This document shows positions 1 through 42,042 of a stretch of DNA of 42,042 nucleotides, piece after piece. Position numbers and translations under genes: made by a program. Below the pieces are notes generated by a model, which did no database searches, was not told the DNA's origin, and saw nothing but the letters and a program-made list of their open reading frames with translations. The stretch is from Escherichia phage Skarpretter, in the sequence record NC_048112.1; one strand, written 5' to 3'. How positions within the stretch are numbered: the first letter of the stretch is position 1; each line of letters begins with the position of its first letter.

Positions 1-16
1 TAGCAAAAAGTGCTAT
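1..16 (-). promoter_or_regulatory. upstream half of the conserved promoter element (palindrome ATAGCAC-N4-TGCTA), truncated by window edge
   Basis: rc reads atagcactttttgcta, identical to the copy at 36884..36899; TATAGT half would lie beyond window start. Confidence 0.4.
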
Positions 17-42
17 CCAAAAAAAACGCCCCGGAGGGCGTT
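17..42 (-). terminator. rho-independent terminator after the 41..769 gene
   Basis: On minus strand: hairpin ACGCCC-tccgg-GGGCGT followed by T8; overlaps the stop codon of the 41..769 ORF. Confidence 0.7.
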
Positions 43-769
43 ATTTGTAGTTGGCGTCAAAGACGGCTTGCGCAAAGCCCCGTGGGGTGCAACTGCGTAT
101 GTTCTTTGTGCGTAGCGACTTGCCGCCGCAATGCTTCCAGCCGGGGTTGTGTTTCACACCGTCCACTGGCTTACGCTCCGGCATGGCAAAGCCACCGCCG
201 CACCAAATCCCGGTGAGTTTGTTGTAGCCGTCGCGGGGCGGGTAGACTTCGGGGTAAAGCGGGTGCGCGTCGTCCTCCGGCAAATAGCCGCCGTACTCGT
301 TCGGGTGGAATTTATGATCCGGGCGTCTCCACATCGTATTGAGTTTGGAGATCGCTGGGTTCTCAAGCATCCACGCGGGCATGGCGTTTGCTTTGAAACC
401 ATCCAGCCACCAGCAACGCCGGGCGACGCGGTAAACCAGTTTTGCGAGGTCTACGGCTTTCTCCTGGAATAGCGGATCAACCTTCGCTTTTGCAGGCCAC
501 CAGCGCGCCCCGGTGCAAGTAAGATCGGTACACTCGGCAAAGCTGGCGATAAACACAACGCCCTGGCCCACTGTCTTTGCGATCTCCGTCGCCTGGTACG
601 GATTGAACGGAGTAAACCAGGTGCCAACGCGCACCAGTAACGGGTTATGCTCGTCGCGGTGTACGCCTGGCGCGTGCTGCCCGTCGAATAACCAGCATTC
701 AACCCCGGCATTAAGCCAGGGTTGTGCCATTATTCCCGTGCGATCGAATAGGAATACGGCCTTTTTCAT
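41..769 (-). CDS. hypothetical protein; weak C5-cytosine-MTase-like resemblance, unconfirmed
   Basis: 242-aa ORF. N-terminus LFDRTGI...AGVECWLFD resembles C5-MTase motif I/II region and WMLENP resembles the ENV motif, but no PCQ motif (FNPYQ at the equivalent place). TAATG coupling with upstream ORF. Confidence 0.45.
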   Translation of the reverse strand: MKKAVFLFDRTGIMAQPWLNAGVECWLFDGQHAPGVHRDEHNPLLVRVGTWFTPFNPYQATEIAKTVGQGVVFIASFAECTDLTCTGARWWPAKAKVDPLFQEKAVDLAKLVYRVARRCWWLDGFKANAMPAWMLENPAISKLNTMWRRPDHKFHPNEYGGYLPEDDAHPLYPEVYPPRDGYNKLTGIWCGGGFAMPERKPVDGVKHNPGWKHCGGKSLRTKNIRSCTPRGFAQAVFDANYK

Positions 770-1005
770 TACGCCTTATCCTCTGCCTGATTGGTCGCTA
801 ATTCCTGCTCGCGCTCGGTGCCGGAGATAGTTACCCAGCCCATGATCCCCAGGTCTGCAAACTTGCGGATCTGGTTATCCCAAATCATATTGACGAGGAT
901 TTGATCCTCCCAGGTGGTGACGCTTTCGGCGGTTGCGTTTCCGCCTGCCTTTAGCTGGTTAAATTGGTCTACGGTAATGTCGCGGGTATTAATGGCGATT
1001 TTCAT
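769..1005 (-). CDS. hypothetical protein
   Basis: ORF with ATG at 1005 preceded by GTGAGG Shine-Dalgarno; stop overlaps the next start. Confidence 0.5.
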   Translation of the reverse strand: MKIAINTRDITVDQFNQLKAGGNATAESVTTWEDQILVNMIWDNQIRKFADLGIMGWVTISGTEREQELATNQAEDKA

Positions 1006-1237
1006 TTTTAGCCTCACTTAACTTTAATTCTACGTAGTCTTTTTCCAGCATCGCCGCCCATTCTGATTGCGGGCGCGGTTTATAATCCTGCTCGTAACTC
1101 ATATCTAATGAGTCGGCAAAATCTGCGGCATCTTCTACGCGTTTAAATTCACCTTTTGCCAGCATGAAGCCAACAACCATATATTTAAAGGTGAGCCATT
1201 GGACGTGCGCCCCGGTACTACGTTTAGCCGTTGCCAT
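989..1237 (-). CDS. hypothetical protein
   Basis: 82-aa ORF, ATG at 1237, same-strand operon context. Confidence 0.5.
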   Translation of the reverse strand: MATAKRSTGAHVQWLTFKYMVVGFMLAKGEFKRVEDAADFADSLDMSYEQDYKPRPQSEWAAMLEKDYVELKLSEAKNENRH

Positions 1238-1246
1238 TATTCCGCC

Positions 1247-1831
1247 TTATACACGAGCGGGCATTACGGCATATTCCGCAACGCCGTTTGTTGAATTGAT
1301 GGTAATAAACGCCGCGTCGGTTGCGTTTTGCAGCGTTATTTTAACGATACTGCTTTTCATTTTAAGCGCCTTGCAGATACGCGTTACCGTGGCGAAATAT
1401 TCCACGTTAAAGCCGATCTCCGTTACGCCTGCGCGGCCCTCTTTCGGCGTGATGAATACGCGGTTAAAGTCAGGGTAGCGCCCGTCTACAACGTCAACGG
1501 TGCCAACTGCAACGCGTGCGGCTTTCAGGTCTAACCCTTCCAGATCTTCGGCCTTGTCGTAAGGCATTGCCAGCCAGTACACGATCCCGGCGTCAGTGTC
1601 GATCGCCGCCGTCTCGATCCCGCGCATTGTTGGCACGGCGGAAAGTTTCAAAATGATCCCCTCGTCCGGCGCGTTGATCAGATCTTCGGTGATACGTAAA
1701 GCGCGGTGCCCGTCCGTTGCCTGCACCTGGTTTTTAATGAAGTGTAAGCCGTTCAGGTAGTAGCGCACGTCAAACTTAGCTTGCGCCAGCATAGCGGCTT
1801 TAATGGTTGCGGCCTTCGCATAAATCATCAT
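1247..1831 (-). CDS. DNA polymerase III beta sliding-clamp (DnaN) homolog, truncated: domains II-III only
   Basis: 194 aa; by-eye alignment to E. coli DnaN from ~residue 130 to the C-terminus: DVRYYLNG, ATDGHR, VDGRYPDF (DnaN VDGRFPDY), EIGFNV, AEYAVMPARV (DnaN AAYVVMPMRL). AGGAG SD 9 nt upstream of ATG. Confidence 0.7.
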   Translation of the reverse strand: MMIYAKAATIKAAMLAQAKFDVRYYLNGLHFIKNQVQATDGHRALRITEDLINAPDEGIILKLSAVPTMRGIETAAIDTDAGIVYWLAMPYDKAEDLEGLDLKAARVAVGTVDVVDGRYPDFNRVFITPKEGRAGVTEIGFNVEYFATVTRICKALKMKSSIVKITLQNATDAAFITINSTNGVAEYAVMPARV

Positions 1832-1877
1832 GGTTTTTACTCCTGCGTTTATTGCCCCGTTTCCGGGGCTTGTTGGT

Positions 1878-2549
1878 TTAAAACACGCTCGCTACTGCGT
1901 CGCGCATTTGCTGCTGGGTAATGTACTCGGTTTTAACGGCACCAGCCTTGCGGGGCCGGATTACAAACAAGGCGCTTGCCTTGCTGTTTTTGCTCGCTTC
2001 TGAGCCGTTGGCGGCGTTGACAAAAGCAACGCGCCCATTGAAAAACTTTGCTTCGCCTTTCTTGTCCGTGCCGTGGTAGCCCATAATGTTAACCACTTCA
2101 CTTGCGACGTTGATCAGCTCGTAAAACCATTCTGGCGAATGGTCATGATTCAGGAGCATAACCGTAGTGACGCCGTTTTGTTTTGCATTTCGTGCGGCGG
2201 CTTTTACCCACGGGAGCGGATCGGCGTAAGGAGGATTGCACCAGACAACATCCCCTTTCTTACCCCAAACCGTGTTGGGGTTTAACGCGTCTTGCTGTTC
2301 GTCGATAAACTCAACACAAAGGGCGTTGGCTTTCTCTGCCGCTACGTCACGCGCAAACGGCCCCCACTTCTGATCAGACCAATTAAAGAGCCATAACGGC
2401 GTGCGCCACTTCTGGCGGACTTTATCTGGCGTCTTACTGCCTGCAAAGCGACGGCCCGTTACGGCTGTATCTGCGGCGGCTGCTGCGTCCTCTGCGCCAG
2501 TGGTGCCGGACTCGTGATCAATGGTGGAGGTGTCGTTAGTGTCTTTCAT
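1878..2549 (-). CDS. DNA N6-adenine methyltransferase (phage Dam family)
   Basis: 223 aa with VVWCNPPYADP (NPPY motif IV of N6-adenine MTases). Confidence 0.8.
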   Translation of the reverse strand: MKDTNDTSTIDHESGTTGAEDAAAAADTAVTGRRFAGSKTPDKVRQKWRTPLWLFNWSDQKWGPFARDVAAEKANALCVEFIDEQQDALNPNTVWGKKGDVVWCNPPYADPLPWVKAAARNAKQNGVTTVMLLNHDHSPEWFYELINVASEVVNIMGYHGTDKKGEAKFFNGRVAFVNAANGSEASKNSKASALFVIRPRKAGAVKTEYITQQQMRDAVASVF

Positions 2550-2552
2550 GGT

Positions 2553-2996
2553 TTACGCCTTTTTGTTATCGGTTGAGCCAAAGCCGTTTGCGCCGCGTGC
2601 CGTTTTCTTTACGGTGTCAACTTCTGTTAACACTACGCGGGGCACTGGCACCAACATTGCCTGGGCTTGCGCTTTGGTGAGGTCGATCGGCGGATATTCG
2701 CCAGTAGGGCGATCGCATACCAGTTTGATCGCAACTTCTCCGGTGTAGTCTGAGTCAATGATCCCCACACAATTACTTAACCGGGTGTCGTTTTTGAAGC
2801 CCTGCCCGCTGCGGCTGTAAATCATCAGGGCGTAACCCTCCGGGATCTCGAAAACAAGCCCCGTTTCCAGGTAAATCGCGTTGTTGCGCTCGTCTGGCCT
2901 GGCGGCGATCGCGTAAATGTCGAAACATGCTGATCCCTCTGTTGCGTAGGTTGGCATTACTGCGTGGGGTGAGTTGCGCTTAACGTTTAACTGCAT
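2553..2996 (-). CDS. dut: dUTP diphosphatase (dUTPase)
   Basis: 147 aa; trimeric dUTPase motif GIIDSDYTGE, N-terminal PTYATEGSA; AGGAG SD. Confidence 0.85.
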   Translation of the reverse strand: MQLNVKRNSPHAVMPTYATEGSACFDIYAIAARPDERNNAIYLETGLVFEIPEGYALMIYSRSGQGFKNDTRLSNCVGIIDSDYTGEVAIKLVCDRPTGEYPPIDLTKAQAQAMLVPVPRVVLTEVDTVKKTARGANGFGSTDNKKA

Positions 2997-3011
2997 GGTT
3001 ATTTACTCCTG

Positions 3012-3036
3012 TTAAAAAGGGGGCCAAAGCCCCCAG
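3012..3036 (-). terminator. rho-independent terminator after SPFH gene
   Basis: Minus strand: GGGGGC-tttg-GCCCCC followed by TTTTT, between SPFH stop (3042) and dut start (2996). Confidence 0.7.
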
Positions 3037-3041
3037 GTTGT

Positions 3042-3893
3042 TTACTTAACGCTGATCATCGGGGTCGCTGCGCCGGGGATCATGGTTGCAGGTAATTTAC
3101 CATCCCACTTATCGGCTTTGGTGTATTCCACCAACTGCGGGTTAGCCTGCAACGCTTCGGATTTGGCTTTAATCGCTGCCGCTTCTGCGTCGCCTTTCAT
3201 CTTGATAGCGTCCGCCTCTGCCTGGGCGTTTGCACGTTTAGCATCGGCTGCGCCTTTTGCTTTGGTGCGGGCAATGTCTGCGCTGATCTGCTCTTTCTGC
3301 AAGTTCTGCTGTTGCGTGCGGATCTCGATCTCGGCTTTCATGTTCTCCTCGATCTTGTCGTTGTACTCTTTGGAGAATTGAACGTTTTCAATCTGCACGG
3401 AGTCGATCGTAAAGGCTTTGCTTACGCTGGCCTGCAAACCCTTCTGGAAGTCTGCCGCCAGGGCGTCACGCTTGATCACGCTGTCCGCTGCGGTGTACTT
3501 ACCAAAGGCCGATTGAAAACGGGCCGGAGCCTGGCGATCAATAATGCGCTCTACTGCGTTCTCCGCCGTGCGGTACTCGCTGTAAATGTAACCAACGCTC
3601 GCGGCTGGGATCGAGTAGGTCACGGAGTAACGCACCGTCGCGTGCTGCTGGTCGCGGCTGTTACCGTTGCCCTTTTCGAAAACGCGCGTATTCTGTTGCA
3701 CGCTGATTTTTTCCACGCTGTCCAGGAAAGGCGTTTTGAAGTGTAAGCCCGGCTCCGCCGTGCCAATCACCTTGCCGTTACGGAGGATTACGCCGCGCTC
3801 GCCCTGGTCGATAATGTACCAGCTACCCAGCGCCGCCATGAGGCCAATAATGATCAGGAGAATTAAACCGCCGCCAACAATCTTTAATTTCAT
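3042..3893 (-). CDS. SPFH/band-7 (HflC/HflK, prohibitin-like) membrane protein
   Basis: 283 aa; N-terminal TM helix (GGGLILLIIIGLMAALGSWYII), SPFH-like core, C-terminal Ala/Glu/Lys-rich coiled coil; own promoter element and own terminator. Confidence 0.75.
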   Translation of the reverse strand: MKLKIVGGGLILLIIIGLMAALGSWYIIDQGERGVILRNGKVIGTAEPGLHFKTPFLDSVEKISVQQNTRVFEKGNGNSRDQQHATVRYSVTYSIPAASVGYIYSEYRTAENAVERIIDRQAPARFQSAFGKYTAADSVIKRDALAADFQKGLQASVSKAFTIDSVQIENVQFSKEYNDKIEENMKAEIEIRTQQQNLQKEQISADIARTKAKGAADAKRANAQAEADAIKMKGDAEAAAIKAKSEALQANPQLVEYTKADKWDGKLPATMIPGAATPMISVK

Positions 3894-3937
3894 GGTGTTA
3901 CCCTTTTGTTTAATCCGGCACCGTTGCCGTGAGTTGA

Positions 3938-3982
3938 ACTATACACTTAAACGTGAATATCTGTTTTAGCAATTTGTGCTAT
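3938..3982 (-). promoter_or_regulatory. conserved promoter element driving SPFH gene
   Basis: Minus strand reads ATAGCACaaatTGCTAAA, 23 nt, TATAGT, tcaACTCAC, ~50 nt before ATG at 3893. Confidence 0.6.
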
Positions 3983-4035
3983 TTTATTAACTCCTGCATT
4001 TTTCTTTTGCGTTTACCTTAGCCAGCCAGCTAACA

Positions 4036-4066
4036 GCCGCCCCGTTTTGGACGCGGCTTTTTTTTA
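4036..4066 (+). terminator. possible rho-independent terminator (plus orientation)
   Basis: GCCGC-12 nt loop-GCGGC followed by T8; long loop, overlaps 3' end of the minus-strand primase gene. Confidence 0.35.
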
Positions 4067-4894: not shown

Positions 4895-4916
4895 AATCAA
4901 CAAAGCCCGTTACTAT
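4888..4916 (+). promoter_or_regulatory. putative sigma70-type promoter for helicase operon
   Basis: TTGCCA-17 nt-TACTAT followed by a CTCAAAC element, ~40 nt upstream of helicase ATG. Confidence 0.35.
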
Positions 4917-4957
4917 TCACTCAAACGTGATTATGAATAAGCAGGAGACAAAACGCA

Positions 4958-6958
4958 ATGGTAATAACCCCCGTCAAGGAAACAAACTTTGCCTGGCAAC
5001 TCATGGAAACGATCGAGGAGCGCATAGCCCGCACGCCGATCGCGGAGTTAATGGCGAAATTTGGCCCAATGCCGCTTGATCCTTACCCGTACCAGTGGGC
5101 CGCTTATGAGGCGGTAGCGGAATGCCTGCGCAAGTACCCCGGCCCGATCATTGTCGAGGCCGCTGTAAGTGCTGGTAAAACGATCATGATCTCCATGCTG
5201 GCGCGGCGCATTGTCGAAATGAAACAACGGGCGCTGGTGATAAGCCGCCAGGCGGAGATCGTGGATCAGGACGCCACGGAGTTATGGAATTTTGACGTTA
5301 AAAACTCCGTGTTTTGCGCCGGGCTGAATAAGAAAAGCACGCATTACCCGGTGGTCTGCGGCTCGGAGAAAACCGTAGCCAACGCGATCGAGGGGAAGTT
5401 AAAAGACTTTGCCCCGCTCTTTCTGGTGATCGATGAATGCCACCAGGTAAACATTGACGATCTGATAGCCTCCGAAACTGCGGAGATCCTGGAGGTGATC
5501 GAGGAAAACGGCGAGCCTTACGAGCGCGTGCGCGTCGGGGAAACGCTGGAGGAAATGATCGCCAATAAGCGCAACTCCTACACGATAATCATTCGTGAAT
5601 TGCAAAGACGTTGCCAGGAGGTACACGGCACCCGCTTACGCGTGATCGGCTACACTGGCACGCCGTACCGGGGCACCGATTCGATCGTAAATGAGGACTA
5701 CGAAACGCCGGGTTTTTGGCGTAAGACGGTGATCCGCATTACAACGCCTTACCTGGTTAAAGTCGGCTCCGTTGTGCCAACGTTCTTTGGCTCCTCCGCG
5801 CTGGGTTACGATCTCTCTGAGTTTGACCAATTCAAGGAGGAGGGCTTAACGGACTTTAGCGACGAGCAATTAAAGGCCATGCAACGCAAGATAGCGCGTG
5901 AGAAGGATTTAACGCACGCAATCATGGCTGAGGTGTACGAGCTAACAAAACGCCGTAACGGCGTTCTGGTGACGTGCTCCGGCGTCGATCACTGCCACGA
6001 GGCCGCAAGCGCGTTACCGGAGGGCGTGACCTATGCGATCATCACGGAGAAAACCACAACCCGCGATCGAATGGACATTATCGCCGGGGCGAAATCCGGC
6101 GCGATAAAGTTTGTCTTTCAGGTCATGGCGCTTACAACTGGCGTTAACGTGCCACCCTGGGACACGTCCGTAATTCTGCGCCGTATCGGCTCGCTAACGC
6201 TGCTCGTGCAACTGCTGGGGCGCGGTATGCGCATTCTGAAAAAAGAGCATATAGCGGCGGGCATGGTGAAAAAAGATCACCTCGTTTTGGACTACTCCGG
6301 CACTATGGCGGCTATGGGTTCCCTGTTTGAAGATCCGATCCTGGAGGATTACACATACCAATCTGAGCAAGTGGGCGAGAAAACCAAAGAGTGCCCGGAC
6401 TGCTTAACGATGAATACAGAAAAGGCCCGCCGTTGCTCCGGGATCGTGAACGGTGAAAGGTGCTGGCATTTCTTCCAATCAAAGACCTGTGACGACGATG
6501 TAGACGGATCGACGGGTCGCATTCTCCGCCCAGGATGCGGGGCCGAAAATGACATAGTAGCCAAAAATTGCCGTTGCTGCGGTAAGCGGCTGATCGACTT
6601 TAACAAAAACCTGTCAGGCCAACATTACACGGAGGGGGATTATTGCAACGTGGTAGATTGGGAGCCGCAAGTAGGCCGGGGCGGCTCGTTTGCGATCCAG
6701 TACACGTTGGAGAAAGACGGGATCACGTTTAAGGCGTGGGAAATCCACTGGTTAACGTCCAACAATCCGGGCGCGTATCAGGTCTGGAAAACGTTTGTTA
6801 ATACCCACGTTTTCGACGAAACCGGACGTAAGACGCTGCGCAACTGCCGCACCCCGGAGGCGGTGTTAAAGAACGTGCATTACCTCATGAAGCCAAAGCG
6901 CGTTACGCACCGTAAGACGGGCGGCGGCAAAGATACCATTAACAAAAAGGTGTTTTGA
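4958..6958 (+). CDS. superfamily 2 DNA helicase (DEAH-type) with C-terminal Cys-rich zinc-binding region
   Basis: 666 aa; Walker A AVSAGKT, Walker B VIDECHQ, motif VI-like LLGRGMR; C-terminal CPDC...CRCCGK cluster. Confidence 0.8.
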   Translation: MVITPVKETNFAWQLMETIEERIARTPIAELMAKFGPMPLDPYPYQWAAYEAVAECLRKYPGPIIVEAAVSAGKTIMISMLARRIVEMKQRALVISRQAEIVDQDATELWNFDVKNSVFCAGLNKKSTHYPVVCGSEKTVANAIEGKLKDFAPLFLVIDECHQVNIDDLIASETAEILEVIEENGEPYERVRVGETLEEMIANKRNSYTIIIRELQRRCQEVHGTRLRVIGYTGTPYRGTDSIVNEDYETPGFWRKTVIRITTPYLVKVGSVVPTFFGSSALGYDLSEFDQFKEEGLTDFSDEQLKAMQRKIAREKDLTHAIMAEVYELTKRRNGVLVTCSGVDHCHEAASALPEGVTYAIITEKTTTRDRMDIIAGAKSGAIKFVFQVMALTTGVNVPPWDTSVILRRIGSLTLLVQLLGRGMRILKKEHIAAGMVKKDHLVLDYSGTMAAMGSLFEDPILEDYTYQSEQVGEKTKECPDCLTMNTEKARRCSGIVNGERCWHFFQSKTCDDDVDGSTGRILRPGCGAENDIVAKNCRCCGKRLIDFNKNLSGQHYTEGDYCNVVDWEPQVGRGGSFAIQYTLEKDGITFKAWEIHWLTSNNPGAYQVWKTFVNTHVFDETGRKTLRNCRTPEAVLKNVHYLMKPKRVTHRKTGGGKDTINKKVF

Positions 6959-9637: not shown

Positions 9638-9692
9638 CTTTTAACCAGGTGCGGCCCTTCGGGGCCAATCCTCCCAGCCACGAGGCTTGCTA

Positions 9693-10079
9693 ATGAAAAC
9701 GTGCAAAAAATGTGGGGAATCAAAGCCGCTCGATCAATTCCATAACGACAAATCAAAGAAAGACGGCAAGCGGGCGAATTGTAAAGCCTGCCAGAATAAG
9801 CAAACGAAAGAGTATCAACACGGGGCGGGTAAGGATGTTGCCAACGCTTGCAAGGCGCGATACATGAAGAAACACGCCAAAAAGCGCCGGGCGCACATCA
9901 TGGTGAATAATGCGATCCGTGACGGCAAATTACAGCGCGGCCCCTGCGAGGTCTGCGGGGAGATCAAGGCGGTTGCCCATCACGACGATTACGATCACCC
10001 GCTGGTGATCCGCTGGCTCTGTGAGCCACATCATAAAGAATGGCATTGCGCCAACGGTGAAGCCCTCAACCCTGATTGA
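9693..10079 (+). CDS. HNH endonuclease-like protein
   Basis: CKKCG...CKAC and CEVCGE...HHDDY...WLCEPHHKEWH consistent with an HNH zinc-binding nuclease. Confidence 0.55.
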   Translation: MKTCKKCGESKPLDQFHNDKSKKDGKRANCKACQNKQTKEYQHGAGKDVANACKARYMKKHAKKRRAHIMVNNAIRDGKLQRGPCEVCGEIKAVAHHDDYDHPLVIRWLCEPHHKEWHCANGEALNPD

Positions 10080-10372: not shown

Positions 10373-12620
10373 ATGCCGGAGTAATGAAGGTGATCGGCTT
10401 GGTCGCGGCTAACTGAGTGCCCGCCGCCGTCGCCGTAGCGATAGGGTGAGCAATGTTAATGCGTACCGGGGAGGACGGCACGCCCTGCGAGGTGTTGTAA
10501 GGCCCACGCGTGATCCACGTCTGCAACGCTGCACCGCCAGCGCCAGCGCCCGGAATGGTGATACGGGTTCCCGGCGTTAACGGCTTGCCATACATCCACG
10601 GCGCGGAGGACTTGTTACCATCCCAATCTACGTTGCAATCAACGTAAGTGTTTCCCACGGTGGTTGCCTTGATCTGGAAATCAGCCGTTGCCGGAATGTA
10701 CGCCCCGGACACGGTGACACGGAAAAATTTTCCGTCCGCACGCTGCACCAGATCCCCGCGCTGAAACTCGCGCCCGGTAGGGAATGCGTTGCTGTCAAAG
10801 TTCGGGTAGTTCATTTCGTCCGGCGTCGGCATGGTGTAAATCTGGTTTACGTTCCCCACCTTCACACCGATCGAGCCGTCGATCCCGTTATACTGGCGCA
10901 TATCCGCGTACACGTTGGAGCCGATCGACGTGATGTTTGTATAGCTGCACTGGCTCCAGCCCTGATCCGCAAAGCCGTTTTCGTCGTAGAAATTCACGTT
11001 AATCATACGCAATACGGACTTACCACGGATAAAGCGCCCGTTTGACGTGGTGCCGCCTGCGGAGTCGTTGCCGATACAATCAAAAACGGTGCCCGTAATG
11101 TTGGACATGTTCAGCATTGACGCCACGCCAAAGAGCGTTAACTTGTAACAGCGGATATTTTCAAGGGTGTACGTGTTCGGCGTCACCATGATCCCGTTAC
11201 TGTCGGCGTTTGCTGCCACACCACAATAAACGCGGCCCTGTTTGGTGCTTACGTTGCGTACAACCATATCAAAGCACGGGTTAGACGGTGCGCCAGCGGT
11301 TACGCCCCACTCCAGCATAACAATACGCACATCATGAGGATCGGCGGTGGTTACTACTGGCTCGCCGTATACGCCGTCAATGGTGATCCGTTTGCAGCCG
11401 TAGGCGATCACGGTGGACATGGTAAGCCCGGTGCCGTTCGAAACGTTCTGGTTTGGGTCGCCGTGGATGTTCTCGATCGTACTGTCGCGGGTCACTTCCA
11501 GGTGTAGGATCTGGCGCACGCGGTTTGCAAAGACGTTGCGGATCGCAAAGTTTTTGGCGTATTGGCTGTCTGGAATATCCCAGCCGTAAGGCCCGGCCCC
11601 GGCGATACCGATCCCGATACCCCAGTTTGAGTTGGCGATCGGGGTTTGCCCGTTCACGTTCTCCATGTAGATCCCGTCAATGACGCAACCGTAATCAAAG
11701 TTGGCGTTAACTACGTTAAACTCCAGGCAATCGCCGCCCACATTGTAGAATGAAAGGTTACGGAATACGCCGCGCTGTACGTCGCCGCTACCCTGCATTA
11801 AGAAGCCGAACAAAGTATTTCGAAACTCGGTGTCGGTCAGTTCGAAAGAGTCGTTTGTAGTCGGTGAAGCCTGCGCCACGATCGAGCCTGCTTTAGACGC
11901 GGTTACTTCGCCGTCGATCAGGCAATCCCTGATCCGGTTGTTGCCACCCCAAAGCATGATGCGCAATTTATTGATGATCGCACCTTCTAACAGGATGTTG
12001 GTGATCCGCCAGTCTGCGGTGCCCTGCCAGGTGCCACCCTGGATCGTGATGCCGTCCGCCGTTACGGTGCTTTCAAGTGTGCCCGTCCAGCCATACGCAT
12101 AAACGATCTTTTTGTTGGCTTTGGCGTAATCAAACATGGCTTGAATTGCCGCGCTCGTGGTCGTGTACTCGTCGCGGCTGGTGAAATCCCACGGCGTAAC
12201 GAAACCTTGCAGGCGGGTTTTTAACGTGCCCTCGGTGGTGCCAACGTATTCCCAGCCCGTAGGGGATTGGATCACCTGCCACATTTGCGCCGCGTCGTAC
12301 TCTAACAGGTTGTCAAAGTAGTATTGCAACACGTTCTGGCGGTTATATACCGCCATGCTGCACCCGGTTTGAGTGACAAAGCGGCCTACGCTGCCCTGAT
12401 AAACAGGATAACCGGAGGCATTGATCTTGATCGGCTGCGGGATCGGGGTGAGGGTTAGATCCTCATTCTCCCAATACACTTGCACCTGGTTTGCTGGATC
12501 AACCGGGTTAGTGTCGGGCTTGCCGATATAAATATCACCGTCCGCAATAGCCGCGAATTTATCCACCTGGATAAACGGCGAGGACGGCATACGCACGGCG
12601 GCGTAAACGGTATCAACCAT
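10371..12620 (-). CDS. tailspike protein with P22-type head-binding N-terminal domain and beta-helix receptor-binding domain
   Basis: 749 aa; N-terminal ~110 aa aligns by eye with P22 gp9 head-binding domain (IYIGKPDTNPVDPANQVQVYWENED...SMAVYN vs P22 [25 protein letters not shown]...SMAIYD); remainder Gly/Asn/Thr-rich. Confidence 0.85.
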   Translation of the reverse strand: MVDTVYAAVRMPSSPFIQVDKFAAIADGDIYIGKPDTNPVDPANQVQVYWENEDLTLTPIPQPIKINASGYPVYQGSVGRFVTQTGCSMAVYNRQNVLQYYFDNLLEYDAAQMWQVIQSPTGWEYVGTTEGTLKTRLQGFVTPWDFTSRDEYTTTSAAIQAMFDYAKANKKIVYAYGWTGTLESTVTADGITIQGGTWQGTADWRITNILLEGAIINKLRIMLWGGNNRIRDCLIDGEVTASKAGSIVAQASPTTNDSFELTDTEFRNTLFGFLMQGSGDVQRGVFRNLSFYNVGGDCLEFNVVNANFDYGCVIDGIYMENVNGQTPIANSNWGIGIGIAGAGPYGWDIPDSQYAKNFAIRNVFANRVRQILHLEVTRDSTIENIHGDPNQNVSNGTGLTMSTVIAYGCKRITIDGVYGEPVVTTADPHDVRIVMLEWGVTAGAPSNPCFDMVVRNVSTKQGRVYCGVAANADSNGIMVTPNTYTLENIRCYKLTLFGVASMLNMSNITGTVFDCIGNDSAGGTTSNGRFIRGKSVLRMINVNFYDENGFADQGWSQCSYTNITSIGSNVYADMRQYNGIDGSIGVKVGNVNQIYTMPTPDEMNYPNFDSNAFPTGREFQRGDLVQRADGKFFRVTVSGAYIPATADFQIKATTVGNTYVDCNVDWDGNKSSAPWMYGKPLTPGTRITIPGAGAGGAALQTWITRGPYNTSQGVPSSPVRINIAHPIATATAAGTQLAATKPITFITPA

Positions 12621-27152: not shown

Positions 27153-28793
27153 TTAGTAGTTGCTCGGTACGTTGTACCCGGAGTAATCCGGCTTGATCAC
27201 CTTCTGCGGCGGCTGCATCGTCATGATCAGGCTATCCGCCATGCCCGGCGATTTGATTTTCAGCTTTGTACGCATCTGAGGCTTAGGCATGCGGGAAAAC
27301 TTGCCGTTTGCGTTGTAGATCCTCGGAATGCGGCAAAGCTCCGCACGTAGCTTGCTCATGTACTCCCCGATCCCGTCGCTGTCCAGGCTGATCAACTCGT
27401 CCGGGTTGATGTAAAGCGTTTCGCCTTTGTCCAGTGCTGCTATCACCTGGGCGGTTTTCTCAAAGCGTCGGCGTAACAGGTAAATATCTTGCGATCCACG
27501 GTTGGCGAATACGTCGCTATTGCTGCTCGCGTTCTTCCCTTCGGTTGGGTTGTTCAGCCACTTATCAAGCTCTACGGGGGCGTCCGGGAATTTCACGCCG
27601 TCGCCTGCGTTGTAGCCCTCAACCATTACCGGAGTGTTGGCGTAAGCGTCAGTAAGCTGGCGGCGCAAGCCTGCGCCCAAACCTGCCCTATCCCACATCA
27701 GCGCGTCAACGTGCGCGGCTTTGGACTCTGCGATCGCCACGTCTGCGGCGTCGTTCGCGTCACCCTCCAGCCAGGACAAACCACGAGTAACCACGGAGCC
27801 GTGCCGGACGATAAACGCTTTGTTATCCTCGCCAACGTCTGCCGGGTCGAGTGCGCCAATCTTCATGCCGGACGGCTTAAACCCGATCCGCTTGTGGGCG
27901 TCGATCGCTGCATCAAACCATTCAGCCGGGATAATCGCATCCGGCACGGAGTCATTGAAAGCGCCTTTCCAGATATGATCGAACAACGCACGGGAAAGCG
28001 TTTTAAAGTCGTATTCCATTTCAGCCCGGAGCGACGCCGGAAACCACGGGTTTTTGTCGTAGTTCACTTTGATCACGAGGTGTAGATCGTCCTCGTAGAT
28101 CCCGTCTTTGTCCAGGGCGTCCGTAAACGGCACGATGAAACGTTTACTAAATGGATCTTCACTGCTGCCGGGGTTGGCGGTGAAGATCATATAGCCCCCT
28201 TCCTCACGCATGGTTGGGGTCAGCTTGCGTAATGACTCCTCGGAAAAGGTCTGCGCCTCCTCACCCCAAAAGCGTTTAAACCCATAGGACGATTTCACGC
28301 CGTCCGGGTCGCGGGCCATACCTTTAAAGACGTGCAAGCCGCCGTTGACGTGGCGGATCTCGTCTTTCATCACTTCGAAACCGTCATACCCGGCACGCTC
28401 GATCATCTGCGAAAGTAGCGGGTGTACGGAGTATTTAATAGCGGTCTGAAACTCGCGGAGGTTCATCACCTTTACGGCGTCGTCGTTCACGTCACCGTTA
28501 AGGATCATCCCGGTTGAGTCGGATTTACCGGAGCCACGGCCCCCGATCACGATGTTAAAGCGTTTGGGGCGCGTTAAGAGCGGCTCCAGCACTTCGGGGA
28601 TCGTGACGTGGTGAGGCTTATCGGTTTCCACCCAGCGGTGGCCCTTTTTGGTGATGTTCTTTACGTGTTCCGGCAAGCCGTTTGCGCCGGGTCGGTAAAT
28701 GCCATAAACCGTGCGGGTGTAGGTGCTAATGTGTCGCGCTTTGGCCTCTGCTGTCGCCATGCGCTGCATGATCTGCTTTAGGTTACGCCCCAT
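27153..28793 (-). CDS. terL: terminase large subunit
   Basis: 546 aa; Walker A IVIGGRGSGKSDS, acidic nuclease-domain residues; directly upstream of portal. Confidence 0.85.
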   Translation of the reverse strand: MGRNLKQIMQRMATAEAKARHISTYTRTVYGIYRPGANGLPEHVKNITKKGHRWVETDKPHHVTIPEVLEPLLTRPKRFNIVIGGRGSGKSDSTGMILNGDVNDDAVKVMNLREFQTAIKYSVHPLLSQMIERAGYDGFEVMKDEIRHVNGGLHVFKGMARDPDGVKSSYGFKRFWGEEAQTFSEESLRKLTPTMREEGGYMIFTANPGSSEDPFSKRFIVPFTDALDKDGIYEDDLHLVIKVNYDKNPWFPASLRAEMEYDFKTLSRALFDHIWKGAFNDSVPDAIIPAEWFDAAIDAHKRIGFKPSGMKIGALDPADVGEDNKAFIVRHGSVVTRGLSWLEGDANDAADVAIAESKAAHVDALMWDRAGLGAGLRRQLTDAYANTPVMVEGYNAGDGVKFPDAPVELDKWLNNPTEGKNASSNSDVFANRGSQDIYLLRRRFEKTAQVIAALDKGETLYINPDELISLDSDGIGEYMSKLRAELCRIPRIYNANGKFSRMPKPQMRTKLKIKSPGMADSLIMTMQPPQKVIKPDYSGYNVPSNY

Positions 28794-35754: not shown

Positions 35755-35787
35755 TATCTCACACCAACAAACAACGGAGTAAACGAA

Positions 35788-36426: not shown

Positions 36427-36431
36427 GACCG

Positions 36432-36927: not shown

Positions 36928-36958
36928 TCTTTCACACCAACACGAGGAGCGAAACAAA

Positions 36959-37180: not shown

Positions 37181-37222
37181 CGGCCCCACGGGGCCAAATC
37201 CACCCAGCACGAGGGGCATTTT

Positions 37223-37839: not shown

Positions 37840-38071
37840 TTACAGTAAACGCGTGCCCCGTATGTGGTTAAACGATATGGGGCCTGGTGGGCGCGTATTC
37901 TGCCGCGTGCGGAGCGCGTCAAAGGAGGCGTTGATCAAGTGGAGCAAAGAGCGCCGTTTGTTCTCGCTGTCCGGGTTGTACCTGCTGAATATTAACCGCC
38001 TGCCGCTGAAACGCTACCGGGCGGAGATCGCGGCGGGATCTTTGTTTGTTCACACTGGCTATAAAAGGTAA
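37820..38071 (+). CDS. hypothetical protein
   Basis: 83 aa, basic; GAGGAG SD; 20-nt overlap with previous ORF. Confidence 0.4.
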   Translation: MRKPGIDYSKRVPRMWLNDMGPGGRVFCRVRSASKEALIKWSKERRLFSLSGLYLLNINRLPLKRYRAEIAAGSLFVHTGYKR

Positions 38072-38076
38072 ATATC

Positions 38077-38379
38077 ATGGAAAATCAAAAGGCTGTAACC
38101 GTTGAAAAATTCGCCCGTTTGTATGAGGTACACGGGCGGCAATTCCTGGTTAAGAAGGGTAAAGACTCGGACGACAACCCGAAATTATCCATCATTACCC
38201 AAATTGACGGCGCGGAAGTTGATTTTGGTTTCTGCTTCCCGGACAACGATCAGGGCTGGGAAGGTCTGGATCATGCTTTCGCCAAAGAGCCGGAGATCCT
38301 GGAGGTTGTCAACGGATTTGGTGAGAAGATTAAAGACTGCAAAACCGCAATAGAAGTGATGTTTGCTTTAAGGTCGTAA
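38077..38379 (+). CDS. hypothetical protein
   Basis: 100 aa, acidic; last gene before terminator. Confidence 0.5.
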   Translation: MENQKAVTVEKFARLYEVHGRQFLVKKGKDSDDNPKLSIITQIDGAEVDFGFCFPDNDQGWEGLDHAFAKEPEILEVVNGFGEKIKDCKTAIEVMFALRS

Positions 38380-38400
38380 GTTAAAATTATGTTTCAACAT

Positions 38401-38430
38401 TAACCGCCCTTTGTGGCGGTTTTCTTTTTG
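38401..38430 (+). terminator. rho-independent terminator ending the early island
   Basis: AACCGCC-ctttgt-GGCGGTT followed by TTCTTTTTG. Confidence 0.7.
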
Positions 38431-38462
38431 GTGTTATATTCCCCTCGTTCACTAATCTTGCA

Positions 38463-38822
38463 ATGAGGGATCTCCGAATGTCAGACACGCCGCTAACCCT
38501 GCATCAGTTATTCATGATGTATCGAACTGAGTTAGGGTATTCATTCATCGCCGCCGTTGTGGCGGTCTTTCGTCACTGGCAATTGCGGCACCCTTTCCGG
38601 GATATGGTAACGAGCGCCGTTATCTGCGCCGCTTTTGCTTTCGGTATGAAATCAATTTTAGAATTTTTCAAAATCGACGGCGGGTTATGGGGTTATCTGG
38701 CCTCGGTCATGCTGGGCTATATGGGTGTCGAAACCCTGTTAGACTACGCCAGCGAAAAGATCCCATTCCTGCGCCGTTCCCCCCGTAAAACTGAGGAGTT
38801 AAACGACAATGGCAAAGCGTGA
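38463..38822 (+). CDS. S: holin, lambda S-like, with dual-start motif
   Basis: 119 aa; begins MRDLRM (two Met separated by charged residues, like lambda S107/S105); TM segments; LGYMGVETLLDYASEKI resembles lambda S IGYIGTDSIGSLIKRF. Confidence 0.7.
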   Translation: MRDLRMSDTPLTLHQLFMMYRTELGYSFIAAVVAVFRHWQLRHPFRDMVTSAVICAAFAFGMKSILEFFKIDGGLWGYLASVMLGYMGVETLLDYASEKIPFLRRSPRKTEELNDNGKA

Positions 38823-39282
38823 AGTCACACCACAACGCAAGGCGTTTTTGGACGCGATCGCCGTGGGCGAGGGCACCGATAATGGACGCCAGCAAACCGC
38901 CAATCATGGCTATGACGTGATTGTAGGCGGTAGCCTGTTTACTGACTACAGCGATCACCCGCGTAAGCTGGTGGTGCTCAATCCCAAACTGAAAAGCACG
39001 GCGGCGGGCCGCTATCAGCTTTTGAGCCGCTATTACGATTCGTATAAAAAATCCCTGGGCCTGCCGGACTTCTCGCCGGAAAGCCAGGATCAGATCGCCC
39101 TCCAGCAAATCGCGGAGCGCGGGGCGCTGGCGGACGTGGACGCGGGCCGGATCAAAGACGCCGTGAAGAAATGCCGCACTATTTGGGCCTCCATGCCGGG
39201 ATCGCCATACGGGCAACGCACGGAGACTATGGCGGACTTTCTGGAATACTTCACCGCTGCGGGCGGTAAGGTAGCCGCGTAA
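38809..39282 (+). CDS. R: endolysin, lambda R-like lytic transglycosylase
   Basis: 157 aa, near-colinear with lambda R: QRKAFLD, EGTDNGRQ, NHGYDVIVGG, LFTDYSDHPRKLV, LNPKLKST, AGRYQLLSR. Confidence 0.9.
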   Translation: MAKREVTPQRKAFLDAIAVGEGTDNGRQQTANHGYDVIVGGSLFTDYSDHPRKLVVLNPKLKSTAAGRYQLLSRYYDSYKKSLGLPDFSPESQDQIALQQIAERGALADVDAGRIKDAVKKCRTIWASMPGSPYGQRTETMADFLEYFTAAGGKVAA

Positions 39283-39833
39283 TGTGGGGCGCGATCCTGG
39301 CCCTCCTGCGCCGATACTGGAAGCCGATCGCCGTAATCCTCCTCGTGCTGCTGGCGCTGGGGGGATCTTACCTTAAAGGCTCGGCTGATAAGGATCAGGA
39401 ATGGCAAGCGCGATGGACACAACGCGATCTGGACGATTCCACCCAGAAAGGGATCGATAATGTAGCCGCCCGGATAATTGAACAAGGCCGGGCCATTGAA
39501 CGCCAGGAGGCGATCGAGGATGCACAAAAACGGGAAGCCGCCGCGCTGGCTGCTGCTGATCGGTTGCGTGGTACTGTTGACGGCCTGCAACAACTCGCCA
39601 ACAAATACGCGGCCCAACTGGACGCCCAGCGGGCAACCACTGATCTTGCCGCTGCCGTCGCAAGCAAAACAAAAGCCCAGGGGGCCGGAGTGCTCGCCGT
39701 CATGCTCGGAAGCGTTGCAAAGGAAGCTGAATATTATGCTAAACGATCTGACGAAAGCTACGACGCCGGGCTAACCTGCGAGCGGCTTTACGAGTCGGTG
39801 AGGGTGACGCAAGAAAAAGTCAAGGGGCCATAA
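39282..39833 (+). CDS. Rz: i-spanin (Rz-like)
   Basis: 183 aa; N-terminal TM helix, periplasmic coiled-coil; TAATG coupling with R. Confidence 0.7.
   Translation: MWGAILALLRRYWKPIAVILLVLLALGGSYLKGSADKDQEWQARWTQRDLDDSTQKGIDNVAARIIEQGRAIERQEAIEDAQKREAAALAAADRLRGTVDGLQQLANKYAAQLDAQRATTDLAAAVASKTKAQGAGVLAVMLGSVAKEAEYYAKRSDESYDAGLTCERLYESVRVTQEKVKGP
39520..39774 (+). CDS. Rz1: o-spanin (Rz1-like) lipoprotein embedded in +1 frame of Rz
   Basis: ~84 aa from internal ATG; signal peptide with lipobox (LIGC / LTAC), Pro-rich mature region. Confidence 0.55.
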   Translation: MHKNGKPPRWLLLIGCVVLLTACNNSPTNTRPNWTPSGQPLILPLPSQAKQKPRGPECSPSCSEALQRKLNIMLNDLTKATTPG

Positions 39834-39848
39834 CGGCCCCTTTTTTTA
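39822..39848 (+). terminator. rho-independent terminator (bidirectional position)
   Basis: GGGGCC-ataac-GGCCCC followed by T7; between Rz and convergent Ig-like gene. Confidence 0.8.
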
Positions 39849-40583
39849 TGCTGCTGGGTTGACGGTTAACACGCAATTGGTGCTTTGCGCCGTCTTGTTG
39901 TTGGCGTCTTTGACGATAACATAATACGTGCCAGCATCACCCGCAACGGCTGCGGCCTTGCTGTACGTTGCGGAGGTTGCGCCGGAGATCGCGGCCCCGT
40001 CTTTGTACCACTGATAAGTGCGGGCGGGTTTGCTGGTGGTTGCTGCCGCTGCCACGATCGAGATCGCCGCCCCGGTGTCAACTGCCAGCGTTGCGGGCGG
40101 CTGCGTGCTAAAGCTCGGCAAGCGGTAGGAGGTGACGGGCATCACGTTAGACGTGATCGCGGTTCCTTCTGCGTCCGTTACCACGCATGACCAGTTATAG
40201 GTGCCGTTGCTTGGGAAAACATCATCAACGTTGCTTGGGCCAAATGTCGGTGAGTTCGATCCCACGTTGGACGCGCTGCGCTTCCACTGGTAAGTGTAAG
40301 GGGCAACGCCGCCAGTAACGGCAACCGTGAGCGGGCCGAATGTTTCCCCGTTGCTTAGGTACACGTCGGCGTGACTTGTGGCAATGTTGGTGGTAAACGC
40401 CAGCGGCTTAACCAGGCGCGGATCAAGCTCAATATAAAACATCCCGGTAGGGTCGAGATCTGCCGGGTCGGTATCAAGCCAGATAATATCTTTTTGCGGG
40501 GTGTGCCCGCTCGCTGGATCTTCGATGCGGGTTACTTTCCACCCTAACAGATCCTTGCGGTAGTATCGGTGCCAAAAGCCCAT
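39846..40583 (-). CDS. protein with two predicted Ig-like domains
   Basis: 245 aa; two repeats with Ig-like signature (YTYQWKRS...GTYNWSCVVTD and YQWYKDGAAISGATSATY...GTYYVIVKD...CVLTV); AAGAGG SD. Confidence 0.6.
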   Translation of the reverse strand: MGFWHRYYRKDLLGWKVTRIEDPASGHTPQKDIIWLDTDPADLDPTGMFYIELDPRLVKPLAFTTNIATSHADVYLSNGETFGPLTVAVTGGVAPYTYQWKRSASNVGSNSPTFGPSNVDDVFPSNGTYNWSCVVTDAEGTAITSNVMPVTSYRLPSFSTQPPATLAVDTGAAISIVAAAATTSKPARTYQWYKDGAAISGATSATYSKAAAVAGDAGTYYVIVKDANNKTAQSTNCVLTVNPAA

Positions 40584-40635
40584 GATTTTTGCCTCTTTGT
40601 TGATTGCAATCGGGAGGATGATAAACCAACACCCC

Positions 40636-40664
40636 GTTAAACGAAAGGAGCCGCGTTTTGCGGC
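40636..40664 (-). terminator. rho-independent terminator
   Basis: Minus strand GCCGC-aaaac-GCGGC followed by TCCTTTCGTTT. Confidence 0.5.
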
Positions 40665-40674
40665 CCCTTCTCGG

Positions 40675-41007
40675 TTACTGCGTTATCTTGCCAGCCTTAA
40701 CCCATTTAACGCGCCTGTTAGCCACTGAGGCAAGCGGACGCTCTAAACGTGCGGCAATCTCTTTGGTTGTTACGCCCTCGTTTGCCAACTCGATCAACGC
40801 CTGATCCTCCGTGCTTTTCCAGTATTCGAAAGATCGGGCCGCTTTCATGTCGAGGCCCAAATAGCGCCCCCGATTCTGGATCGAGTTGAGCGGACGGCCC
40901 AACTTGTGCGCAAGCTGTTTGGCGGTTAAGCGCTCCTCTTTCGGCAATGCCGCGTTACTGATCAGCGCCTGATCCTCTGCTGCGGTGTACTGTTTCCCGT
41001 TTGGCAT
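40675..41007 (-). CDS. DNA-binding protein with two tandem Myb/SANT-like HTH repeats
   Basis: 110 aa; repeats AEDQALIS...TAKQLAHKLGRPLNSIQNR and TEDQALIEL...TTKEIAARLERPLASVANRR resemble the Myb repeat W-x-EDQ-x-IEL...IA..L...R. Confidence 0.5.
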   Translation of the reverse strand: MPNGKQYTAAEDQALISNAALPKEERLTAKQLAHKLGRPLNSIQNRGRYLGLDMKAARSFEYWKSTEDQALIELANEGVTTKEIAARLERPLASVANRRVKWVKAGKITQ

Positions 41008-41009
41008 TA

Positions 41010-41162
41010 TTCATCCTCCGCAAAGCGCAAAGCCTTTTGGCGGGTGATCTCTTTCGCCAGCGTTTTGATCAGGTCTGCCCAATCGAACGTGCCACGGATC
41101 ACGCTCTCCGGGTTCGCGCCTTTGGCGAGCGCCTGGATCTGCTTGTGGGTTAATTTCTTCAT
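41010..41162 (-). CDS. small hypothetical ORF (50 aa), translationally coupled
   Basis: Not in supplied ORF track; ATG overlaps upstream stop (ATGA), stop overlaps downstream ATG; supported only by coupling. Confidence 0.3.
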
Positions 41163-41419
41163 AAGCCTTTAAGCCTCTTTGGGTTGTGGTTGGTTTTAAT
41201 GGCGGCTTTAAACTCCGCCTTTGTCTGCTGCGTGCCGGGAACGATCCGCACGTAACGCTGGGGTTTATTGTGTAAGAAGGTGCAAACCCCGTCTTTGATT
41301 ACTGCAATGTCGGCTATGTCGCCGTCAAACGCGGCGGAGATCCGCTTTATGTCCTCCGCCATGCCTGCGGCTTTCACCGCCTCCCATACCTCCGCCTTAC
41401 TGCCGTTTTTGTAATGCAC
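41159..41419 (-). CDS. hypothetical protein
   Basis: 86-aa ORF in coupled operon. Confidence 0.5.
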   Translation of the reverse strand: MHYKNGSKAEVWEAVKAAGMAEDIKRISAAFDGDIADIAVIKDGVCTFLHNKPQRYVRIVPGTQQTKAEFKAAIKTNHNPKRLKGL

Positions 41420-41795
41420 GGGTTAACGCCTCCGCGTGCCGGACAACCCGATCGCACGTCTCCACATCAAACAACCCTATGTGGCATTGCGATTTGGGGA
41501 TCTCCAGGAGTTTAGCGAGCCACGCGTAAGCCTGACTCCGTTTCTTCCATCCGTTGCGCCAGATAGGATCAAAGGCCGCATGAGCCTTGTTACGGGCGCG
41601 TTTTGTCGCTTTGTCCGCCGTATTCCCCAGCGGGCGATCGGTGTCTTTGTGGCAACCCACGCTGGCACCGCACGGGCAAATGTAGCATTTCAGGTGATGC
41701 AAATCCGGGCGTTTTGGGTAAAGCGCTGCGGCACTGCTCAAAACTGCGGAGGCAACGCCCCCGCAAATTGCACAATCAATGGCTTTATTTTCCAT
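41397..41795 (-). CDS. zinc-finger (Cys-rich) hypothetical protein
   Basis: ~133 aa from ATG at 41795; CAICGG...CYICPCG...CH Cys clusters. Confidence 0.5.
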   Translation of the reverse strand: MENKAIDCAICGGVASAVLSSAAALYPKRPDLHHLKCYICPCGASVGCHKDTDRPLGNTADKATKRARNKAHAAFDPIWRNGWKKRSQAYAWLAKLLEIPKSQCHIGLFDVETCDRVVRHAEALTRALQKRQ

Positions 41796-42000
41796 ATGCA
41801 CCCCGCAAAGCGTCGCGGGCGTTTTCTTCGGCCTGGGCCGCTTCACGTTTCAGGGCGGCAACTGCTGCCGGGCCTGCATGGTACATTTTCAGGCGGTTAC
41901 GGAGACGGCAAGCCAGATCCGCCAGCACATGAGCCTGAGCCAGTAACAGCGGGGAAACGATCTGCGCTTTGTTGCTTTTGGTGATTAGTAAAGTTTGCAT
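41785..42000 (-). CDS. hypothetical protein
   Basis: ~71 aa from ATG at 42000 with GAGGAG SD, directly downstream of promoter element at window edge. Confidence 0.45.
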   Translation of the reverse strand: MQTLLITKSNKAQIVSPLLLAQAHVLADLACRLRNRLKMYHAGPAAVAALKREAAQAEENARDALRGAYGK

Positions 42001-42013
42001 CGTTGTTGCTCCT

Positions 42014-42042
42014 CTTGTTGGTGTGAGGTCACTATACAAAGT
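42014..42042 (-). promoter_or_regulatory. downstream half of conserved promoter element (TATAGT-N3-CTCACACCAAC), truncated by window edge
   Basis: Minus strand reads tatagtgacCTCACAccaac then GAGGAG SD and ATG at 42000. Confidence 0.5.

Follow-up and report, generated by a model that had tools for sequence, protein, structure and literature searches.

Over-representation of GATC in Escherichia phage Skarpretter and its relatives, which encode a Dam-family adenine methyltransferase

Why would a coliphage carry GATC far more often than its base composition predicts, and does the adenine methyltransferase that it encodes have a part in this? These questions are raised by Escherichia phage Skarpretter (NC_048112.1), the window analysed here being its whole genome of 42,042 bp, with a G+C content (GC) of 55.8%. 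A preliminary description of this DNA, made from the sequence, had noted a strong excess of GATC in stretches counted by eye and, along with it, a Dam-family methyltransferase, and had proposed that the tetramer is functionally used. Skarpretter (MK105855) is tabulated by Olsen et al. 2020 with exactly this length and GC, as a phage isolated on E. coli K-12 MG1655 that has C130_2 as its nearest relative.

Exact counting confirmed the excess, with one GATC per 82 bp:

1-42,042: 512 GATC sites, evenly spread at 7 to 19 per kb, with 12.6 per kb in coding DNA.

The density was 12.2 per kb in genes of the plus strand and 12.7 per kb in genes of the minus strand. As for the stretches first sampled by eye, 5041-5580 does contain the 12 sites reported for it, 11401-11700 contains 7 rather than 5, and terL (27153-28793) has 21 GATC in 1641 bp, or about 4.6 per 360 bp, where 6 had been given.

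The observed number was compared with several null models. Base composition predicts 158.7 GATC, an observed over expected ratio (O/E) of 3.23, and dinucleotide-preserving shuffles gave 124.0 +/- 10.6 sites, none of the 100 shuffles attaining 512. With a second-order Markov model the expectation rose to 320 (O/E 1.60), GATC keeping the top z score among the 256 tetramers; this model is conservative, since GAT and ATC are themselves inflated. In the codon-aware null, synonymous codons were permuted inside each of 53 genes, so that protein sequence and per-gene codon usage were kept. Coding DNA contained 484 GATC compared to 244 +/- 11 under this null (z = 22), which rules out codon usage as the full cause. 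We conclude that roughly half of the 3.2-fold excess is due to GC-rich codon usage, and that an excess of about 2-fold is left over. The over-representation thus holds on exact counts, and neither of the outcomes that the preliminary description had named as fatal to it, a ratio near 1 or a codon effect accounting for everything, was encountered.

The excess arises via context-dependent synonymous choice, GAT being preferred before C, and a G-ending codon before ATC. Aspartate was encoded by GAT in 160 of 218 cases (73%) when C came next, compared to 17-48% with another next base, and the His, Asn and Tyr codons used as controls showed no comparable shift before C. Similarly, isoleucine was encoded by ATC in 302 of 350 cases (86%) after a G-ending codon and in 35-62% otherwise, and 69% of the ATC codons were preceded by G, compared to 31% of G-ending codons overall. 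The effect was equal for plus and minus strand genes, and for early and late genes. Flanking bases had little influence: C was found at position -1 in 39% of the sites, for a base frequency of 28%, 15 of the 16 NNGA contexts were enriched (1.25 to 2.5-fold), and the NGATCN hexamers fitted a fourth-order expectation, GGATCC excepted. Weak flanks and hexamers at their expectation rule out a longer motif such as CGATC, which had been suggested earlier as a superset, or SGATCS. In non-coding DNA the O/E for GATC was 2.0, enrichment being confined to long segments, and short AT-rich spacers were free of GATC. We dropped this enrichment as a codon-free proof, because small open reading frames that escaped annotation are probably present in the “intergenic” segments with GATC.

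The closest records in the phage collection, at 72-77% identity over part of the genome, were C130_2, “Stutzerimonas” STP9, Klebsiella phage IME279, Sortsne and IME_EC2 (C130_2, Sortsne and IME_EC2 are Escherichia phages). Gene order agreed with that of the annotated relatives, the structural module being P22-like and the replication/recombination module T1-like. The clade consists of the podoviruses Skarprettervirus, Hungariovirus, Sortsnevirus and Murrayvirus, whose hosts are E. coli, Klebsiella and Kosakonia. All five sequenced relatives were enriched, with 470-522 GATC and O/E of 3.06-3.48, while P22 had 62 sites (O/E 0.38), lambda 116 (0.61) and T1 235 (1.26), the codon-aware ratios of these three phages being 0.32, 0.59 and 1.05, respectively. 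For the host we took 45 kb of the MG1655 chromosome as a sample, in which the O/E was 0.98 and the codon-aware ratio 0.92. The codon-aware survey was then made on 125 loci, 17 from the clade and 108 others. Ratios ranged from 1.57 (Sortsne) to 1.99 (Skarpretter, the highest) in the clade, and did not exceed 1.46 in the others, the T1-like contigs lying between 1.05 and 1.46. Second-order Markov ratios of the clade were 1.34-1.60. We conclude that the GATC excess is a property of the clade and not of the host.

Counter-selection of GATC in enterobacteriophages is said to have been described by McClelland in 1985, Sharp in 1986, and Deschavanne and Radman in 1991. It concerns the same motif and the same hosts, and P22 and lambda reproduced it here; the Skarpretter clade shows the opposite sign, being 3-fold enriched. 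Two observations on these records are reported in passing. The GC of Skarpretter (55.8%, 55-60% in the relatives) is above that of the E. coli host (48.9% in the 45-kb sample), which reverses the usual relation between phage and host. The STP9 record (OR754315.1) is unannotated, marked UNVERIFIED_ORG and labelled Stutzerimonas phage vB_SstS_STP9; over 39 kb it shows 92% identity to C130_2, and this identity, together with common word statistics, makes its host label look doubtful.

The methyltransferase gene lies in the replication module of the phage:

1878-2549, minus strand: Dam-family N6-adenine DNA methyltransferase of 223 amino acids (PF05869, TIGR01712, NPPY motif), adjoining the dUTPase and primase genes.

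Its assignment as an NPPY adenine methyltransferase, proposed from the letters alone, was corroborated by PF05869 (E = 4.8e-41, 140.7 bits for a cutoff of 28.1) and by the TIGR01712 equivalog model (104 bits, cutoff 97.05). The NPPY motif occupies residues 105-108, within WCNPPYAD (103-110), and was invariant across six aligned homologs. Its identity is 50-70% with the orthologs of four annotated genomes of the clade and 33% with T1 Dam, and an ortholog was present in all clade genomes examined. We infer that it is specific for GATC. It belongs with the orphan Dams of phages, T1 and HP1/VT-2 Dam, and functionally T2/T4 Dam and P1 Dmt, with which it has in common a small NPPY N6-adenine methyltransferase, placed in a DNA-metabolism module of a virulent coliphage. 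Such enzymes are usually read as serving self-protection of phage DNA. Target enrichment is not reported for those phages, and what is unusual in Skarpretter is the density of targets in the genome, not the enzyme.

A single-protein query of viral contigs with Skarpretter Dam gave no match. Among 80 IMG/VR viral contigs with a Dam homolog, an O/E above 2 was found only in the nearest relatives, and some contigs were strongly depleted, so that possession of Dam alone is insufficient for enrichment; the idea that any phage with such a Dam is enriched was ruled out on these 80 loci. Five viral contigs of 40-48 kb with a Dam-family homolog (34-35% identity) had strong GATC depletion, with codon-aware ratios of 0.31-0.43, and Dam-family members therefore accompany both depletion and enrichment of their presumed target. 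A 30-kb contig, IMGVR_UViG_3300013307_000041, whose terL and Dam are 67% and 48% identical to those of Skarpretter, was intermediate (O/E 2.16, codon-aware ratio 1.31-1.33). Its lineage may mark the onset of the trait.

How much of the excess could be a passive consequence of the avoidance of other words was estimated with a Markov chain of synonymous swaps, started from the real genome with codon usage fixed, in which strongly depleted 4-6-mers were barred from exceeding their observed counts. Whole-genome GATC counts were as follows:

Chain without constraints: about 268 GATC at equilibrium.
Chain with 191-247 depleted words free of GAT and ATC: 308-333 GATC.
Chain with all 226-286 depleted words: 370-385 GATC.
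Observed: 512 GATC.

Avoidance of other words thus explains roughly 18-48% of the context-level surplus of GATC, the figure of 48% being partly circular, since depletion of words containing GAT or ATC can follow from the GATC excess itself. Whether GATC sites are under constraint was examined on a close pair, C130_2 and STP9, which diverge by 6.9%. Silent third positions differed in 43 of 603 cases (7.1%) inside GATC, compared to 368 of 3428 (10.7%) at matched positions outside (p = 0.007). GAT codons changed in 7.0% of cases before C and in 16.1% elsewhere (p = 0.013), and GATC ranked 14th of 228 tetramers by conservation. The GATC excess is therefore currently maintained, comparable silent positions changing about 1.5 times as often as those inside GATC.

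If GATC is methylated, restriction sites overlapping it could be shielded. A sign of this came from the palindrome ATCGAT:

5429-39458: 16 sites of the ClaI type (ATCGAT), all of which overlap a GATC (as GATCGAT or ATCGATC).

Supplier tables list ClaI-type enzymes as unable to cut where Dam methylation overlaps their site, and as each of these sites overlaps GATC, all would carry it. The overlap was found for 16 of 16 sites in Skarpretter and 83 of 83 in the five relatives, that is 99 of 99, at 66 distinct loci. No “naked” ATCGAT was present in the six clade genomes, compared to 17.4 expected when the GATC excess is allowed for, while the majority of ATCGAT sites were “naked” in P22, T1, lambda and the host sample. 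In line with this, TCGA without GATC overlap was at 0.36 of its composition expectation in Skarpretter, and CTCGAT was extended to CTCGATC in 184 of 204 cases across the clade, for 121 expected. TGATCA, a site of the BclI type that is Dam-blocked, was avoided in no clade genome. Such signatures in the sequence show the rescue, by GATC overlap, of words that would otherwise be forbidden. Shielding of a few overlapping sites was nevertheless ruled out as the whole story, since nearly all NNGA contexts (15 of 16) are enriched.

Sites insensitive to Dam behaved differently from one lineage to the next. GGATCC was absent from Skarpretter and Sortsne (21-25 expected) and present 36-43 times in the others, and CGATCG was absent from C130_2 and STP9 (30-33 expected) and present 57-68 times in the others. 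This lineage-specific purge suggests either a recent difference in restriction exposure, or a difference in the specificity of a second methyltransferase:

41-769, minus strand: second putative DNA methyltransferase of 242 amino acids (phrog_757, E = 3e-65), conserved in the clade and called “DNA” or “Dcm methylase” in PHROGs and NCBI.

No sequence match to this protein was found in Pfam, NCBIfam or PDB. Its AlphaFold2 model (pLDDT 93.4) had as best fold match a prophage DNA methyltransferase, 3g7u, which is a weak one (E = 1.3e-3, TM 0.38), and the canonical FxGxG loop is lacking. Some 700 homologs were collected, mostly on phage-like contigs of 40-50 kb. We considered it as a GATC-flank-specific enzyme, a possible cause of the loss of GGATCC or CGATCG, and the alignment and fold search gave no clue to specificity.

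Avoidance of palindromes, as restriction sites, is known in phage genomes (PMC6286503). In Skarpretter 31 of the 64 palindromic hexamers were absent, each being expected 8-20 times, and 37 were at or below 25% of expectation. The number of absent hexamers was 27-30 in the relatives, 6 in P22, 11 in T1, 2 in lambda and 3 in the host sample. CTAG occurred twice, for 35-159 expected. Palindromes of the form S....S were nearly all gone, the exceptions being CGATCG (68) and GTTAAC (23). Strong strand asymmetries were also seen: CAGCAG was counted 0 and 75 times on opposite strands, CAGAG 0 and 33, CCGAG 0 and 55, CGAAG 0 and 51, CGACC 0 and 47, independently of gene orientation, and on the plus strand GCAG was found 28 times and CTGC 451 times, with no GCAG within either of the plus strand gene blocks. 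In four relatives CAGCAG was likewise at 0 versus 50-72, and in IME_EC2 at 23 versus 80. Nine 5-mers of Skarpretter were absent on one strand and present 20 times or more on the opposite one, compared to 4-5 in the relatives and none in P22, T1 and lambda. Type III enzymes require inversely oriented sites, T7 being the classical case of evasion, reportedly through EcoP15I sites in a single orientation (as described by Meisel in 1992 and Krueger in 1995), and two of the words above, CAGCAG and CAGAG, are the sites of the Type III enzymes EcoP15I and StyLTI. The asymmetry is consistent with escape from Type III and similar enzymes, and far exceeds in extent the case of T7 and EcoP15I. Both the avoidance of restriction sites and the single orientation of the T7 type are thus present in Skarpretter, in extreme form. 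Restriction avoidance deletes words, however; GATC is instead multiplied, and avoidance explains only part of this.

The arrangement of the sites was then analysed. Gaps between GATC sites were geometric, or Poisson-like, with a coefficient of variation of 0.99 and a largest gap of 512 bp (558 expected), and counts per kb were mildly under-dispersed (variance/mean 0.64). The distance spectrum showed the 3-nt codon period only, and no phasing at 10-11 bp. No cluster above random was detected, the maxima being 6, 7 and 10 sites in 100, 160 and 300 bp, compared to null mean maxima of 6.4, 7.9 and 10.9. E. coli oriC, P1 pac and oriL share the motif, which is known there to be read by Dam and SeqA, and hold 5-11 GATC per 100-250 bp, whereas Skarpretter has no clusters beyond random at its own density. 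SeqA phasing and origin- or pac-like clusters were not found in these tests. As to the proposal that GATC is functionally used, the part invoking methylation-dependent protection is consistent with the signatures described above (99 of 99 ATCGAT shielded, TGATCA kept), and the part invoking SeqA/MutH interplay or packaging control found no support in the spacing.

How could these observations fit together? In Dam+ enterobacterial hosts, and with the phage's own Dam keeping pace with rapid replication, GATC would always be N6-methylated, and for this reason would be the one short palindrome safe from restriction. Methylated GATC would imitate cognate methylation for restriction enzymes whose target adenine can fall inside GATC, so that ClaI-type sites would be tolerated only when overlapping GATC, and CTCGA/TCGA words preferentially extended to ...GATC. 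Hundreds of forbidden words would funnel synonymous choices into GATC, which would be the passive part of the excess (about 18-48% at context level), and the remainder would reflect direct selection for dense Dam-methylated sites, the genome raising the substrate density of its own methyltransferase. Were all GATC modified, about 5.5% of the adenines would be methylated. To this composite of methylation-dependent protection, refuge effect and direct selection for GATC density we give about even chances. It is possible, if somewhat doubtful, that the density of N6-methyladenine is itself the selected trait, in a sequence-encoded hypermethylation that would act towards putative defence systems either as a broad armour or as a self-mark. 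We propose with equal reserve that the clade would have multiplied the target of a strict GATC methyltransferase, rather than recruiting a promiscuous enzyme or an exotic base.

Several points weigh against this composite. The GATC specificity of the phage Dam rests on 33% identity to T1 Dam and on sequence statistics, and the host Dam could leave the same signatures. T1-like phages, whose Dam is homologous and whose replication module is similar, are little enriched. At deep divergence (53-62% protein identity), GATC positions were shared just like other synonymous states, with odds ratios of 3-5 for both; this lack of extra sharing suggests that selection would bear on density rather than on fixed positions. 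CGATCG and AGATCT, which are not blocked by Dam methylation, are tolerated in Skarpretter, and some potentially shieldable sites (TCCGGA, TCGCGA, TCTAGA) are wholly absent. Shielding of specific overlaps cannot yield the bulk of the excess, given that nearly all NNGA contexts are enriched 1.25 to 2.5-fold. Finally, we know of no defence system documented as blocked by N6-methyladenine density as such.

Alternatively, GATC may have no positive value and be a neutral refuge word, as a pure by-product of a GC-rich coding genome in which very many words are forbidden. GC-rich codon usage alone brings the O/E to about 1.7, barring the 191-286 depleted 4-6-mers lifts the equilibrium from about 268 to 308-385 GATC, and constraints outside the model, such as bipartite Type I sites, 7-8-mers and words that are mildly depleted, could raise it further. 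Skarpretter, which is depleted in GATG/CATC, also has the top codon-aware ratio (1.99), compared to 1.57 for Sortsne, in which GATG is not depleted. At least 127 sites are nevertheless still unexplained, more than 10 standard deviations of the chain, the strongest contribution comes from words containing GAT or ATC, whose depletion may itself follow from the GATC excess, and change at silent positions is slower inside GATC than in controls. Sortsne, IME279 and IME_EC2 moreover reach O/E of 3.0-3.5 without GATG depletion, and compensation for GATG/CATC depletion was ruled out as a general cause on these three equally enriched relatives. On balance we consider it unlikely that the excess is purely a by-product. 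That it is the inherited signature of a former, GC-richer host, in which codon usage made GATC common, seems hardly credible. The clade is indeed richer in GC (55-60%) than E. coli (about 49-51%), and unrelated viral contigs of 57-62% GC attain O/E of 2.0-2.5, but their Markov ratios are about 1.05 and their codon-aware ratios 1.0-1.3, compared to 1.34-1.60 and 1.57-1.99 in the clade; in addition the signal spans genera whose hosts are E. coli, Klebsiella and Kosakonia, and there is present-day constraint.

Use of host factors, by which GATC density and Dam would recruit or titrate SeqA, MutH or host Dam, or would time replication, late transcription or packaging through methylation state, is in our opinion improbable. 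GATC is the binding site of SeqA and the cleavage site of MutH, and the dam gene sits in the replication module. The classical account of GATC depletion in Dam-less coliphages reportedly involves MutH (Deschavanne and Radman, in 1991, are said to be its source), and if MutH does underlie that depletion, acquisition of a Dam shifts the balance. Spacing is however Poisson-like (coefficient of variation 0.99) with the 3-nt periodicity only, no window of 100-300 bp goes beyond random or resembles oriC or P1 pac, the short AT-rich regulatory spacers lack GATC, and T1-like phages sharing the helicase-primase-ExoVIII-Erf-Dam module are not enriched. The last explanation to be weighed, which we hold to be very improbable, is a mutational drive without selection, by a methylation-biased repair ratchet, such as that proposed by Elhai for HIP1, or by another context-dependent mutation bias. 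HIP1 (GCGATCGC) is the highly iterated palindrome of cyanobacteria, where orphan methyltransferases for GATC and CGATCG occur (PMC4390886, PMC5861425). It offers the precedent of a hyper-abundant GATC-containing palindrome that is accompanied by orphan methyltransferases and that point substitutions have spread; early methylation of nascent strands could result from over-expression of the phage Dam, and slower change inside GATC is compatible with a mutation bias. Since MutH cleaves only the strand that itself carries GATC, though, a new half-site cannot redirect repair, a difficulty that is acknowledged in the HIP1 literature. The host and the T1-like Dam phages, with the same repair system, are not enriched. 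The sole C-to-T precursor, GACC/GGTC, is depleted in Skarpretter but not in the equally enriched Sortsne-type relatives, and this limitation to some lineages ruled out deamination of 5-methylcytosine in GACC as a source of GATC.

In the literature we found no report of GATC enrichment in Skarpretter-type phages, the describing papers naming methyltransferases and not GATC frequency. Phage Dams, restriction avoidance and the orientation bias linked to Type III enzymes are already known, and the closest analogue of the enrichment itself is HIP1. The two have in common a methylated, GATC-containing palindrome far above composition, orphan methyltransferases, an origin by point substitution and an unsettled function. 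They differ in that HIP1 is an octamer of bacterial chromosomes, 15-300-fold over-represented and quasi-periodic, while in Skarpretter, a virus, the word is a bare tetramer with weak flanks, 2-3-fold in excess and randomly spaced. Of the features that define HIP-like sequences, Skarpretter thus displays an excess beyond oligomer and codon expectation (Markov 1.60, codon-aware 1.99) and an orphan Dam, and has neither an 8-mer consensus nor quasi-periodic spacing (weak flanks, coefficient of variation of the gaps 0.99). Enteric phages serve as the standard example of GATC depletion, and here a whole clade is reversed, under demonstrable selection and alongside an extremely restriction-purged genome of 42 kb. 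Such a clade-wide reversal suggests that the frequency of a phage's own methylation target can be tuned as a counter-defence trait. If this were true, motif enrichment would allow the modifications that protect a phage to be read from its sequence, and would be relevant to the choice or engineering of therapeutic phages against restriction-rich clinical Enterobacteriaceae.

Three further genes drew our attention. A gene of the SPFH/Band-7 family (HflC-like; 3042-3893, minus strand) lies in the replication module between the dUTPase and primase genes, and was deemed unusual for a phage by Skarpretter's describing authors. It has 12.9 GATC per kb, which is the genome-wide density, so that a bacterial origin, if there was one, has been followed by adjustment to phage composition. 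The RusA-like resolvase (phrog_3007; 1247-1831, minus strand) gave weak N-terminal matches to the DNA polymerase III beta subunit, or sliding clamp (PF02767, E = 0.003, below cutoff; phrog_947), and this N-terminal part could be a clamp-binding segment. Lastly, an endonuclease VII/HNH-like protein of 130 amino acids (9687-10079, plus strand) has an N-terminal zinc-ribbon part that also matches a Lar-like restriction alleviation PHROG, and it may provide a further anti-restriction function.

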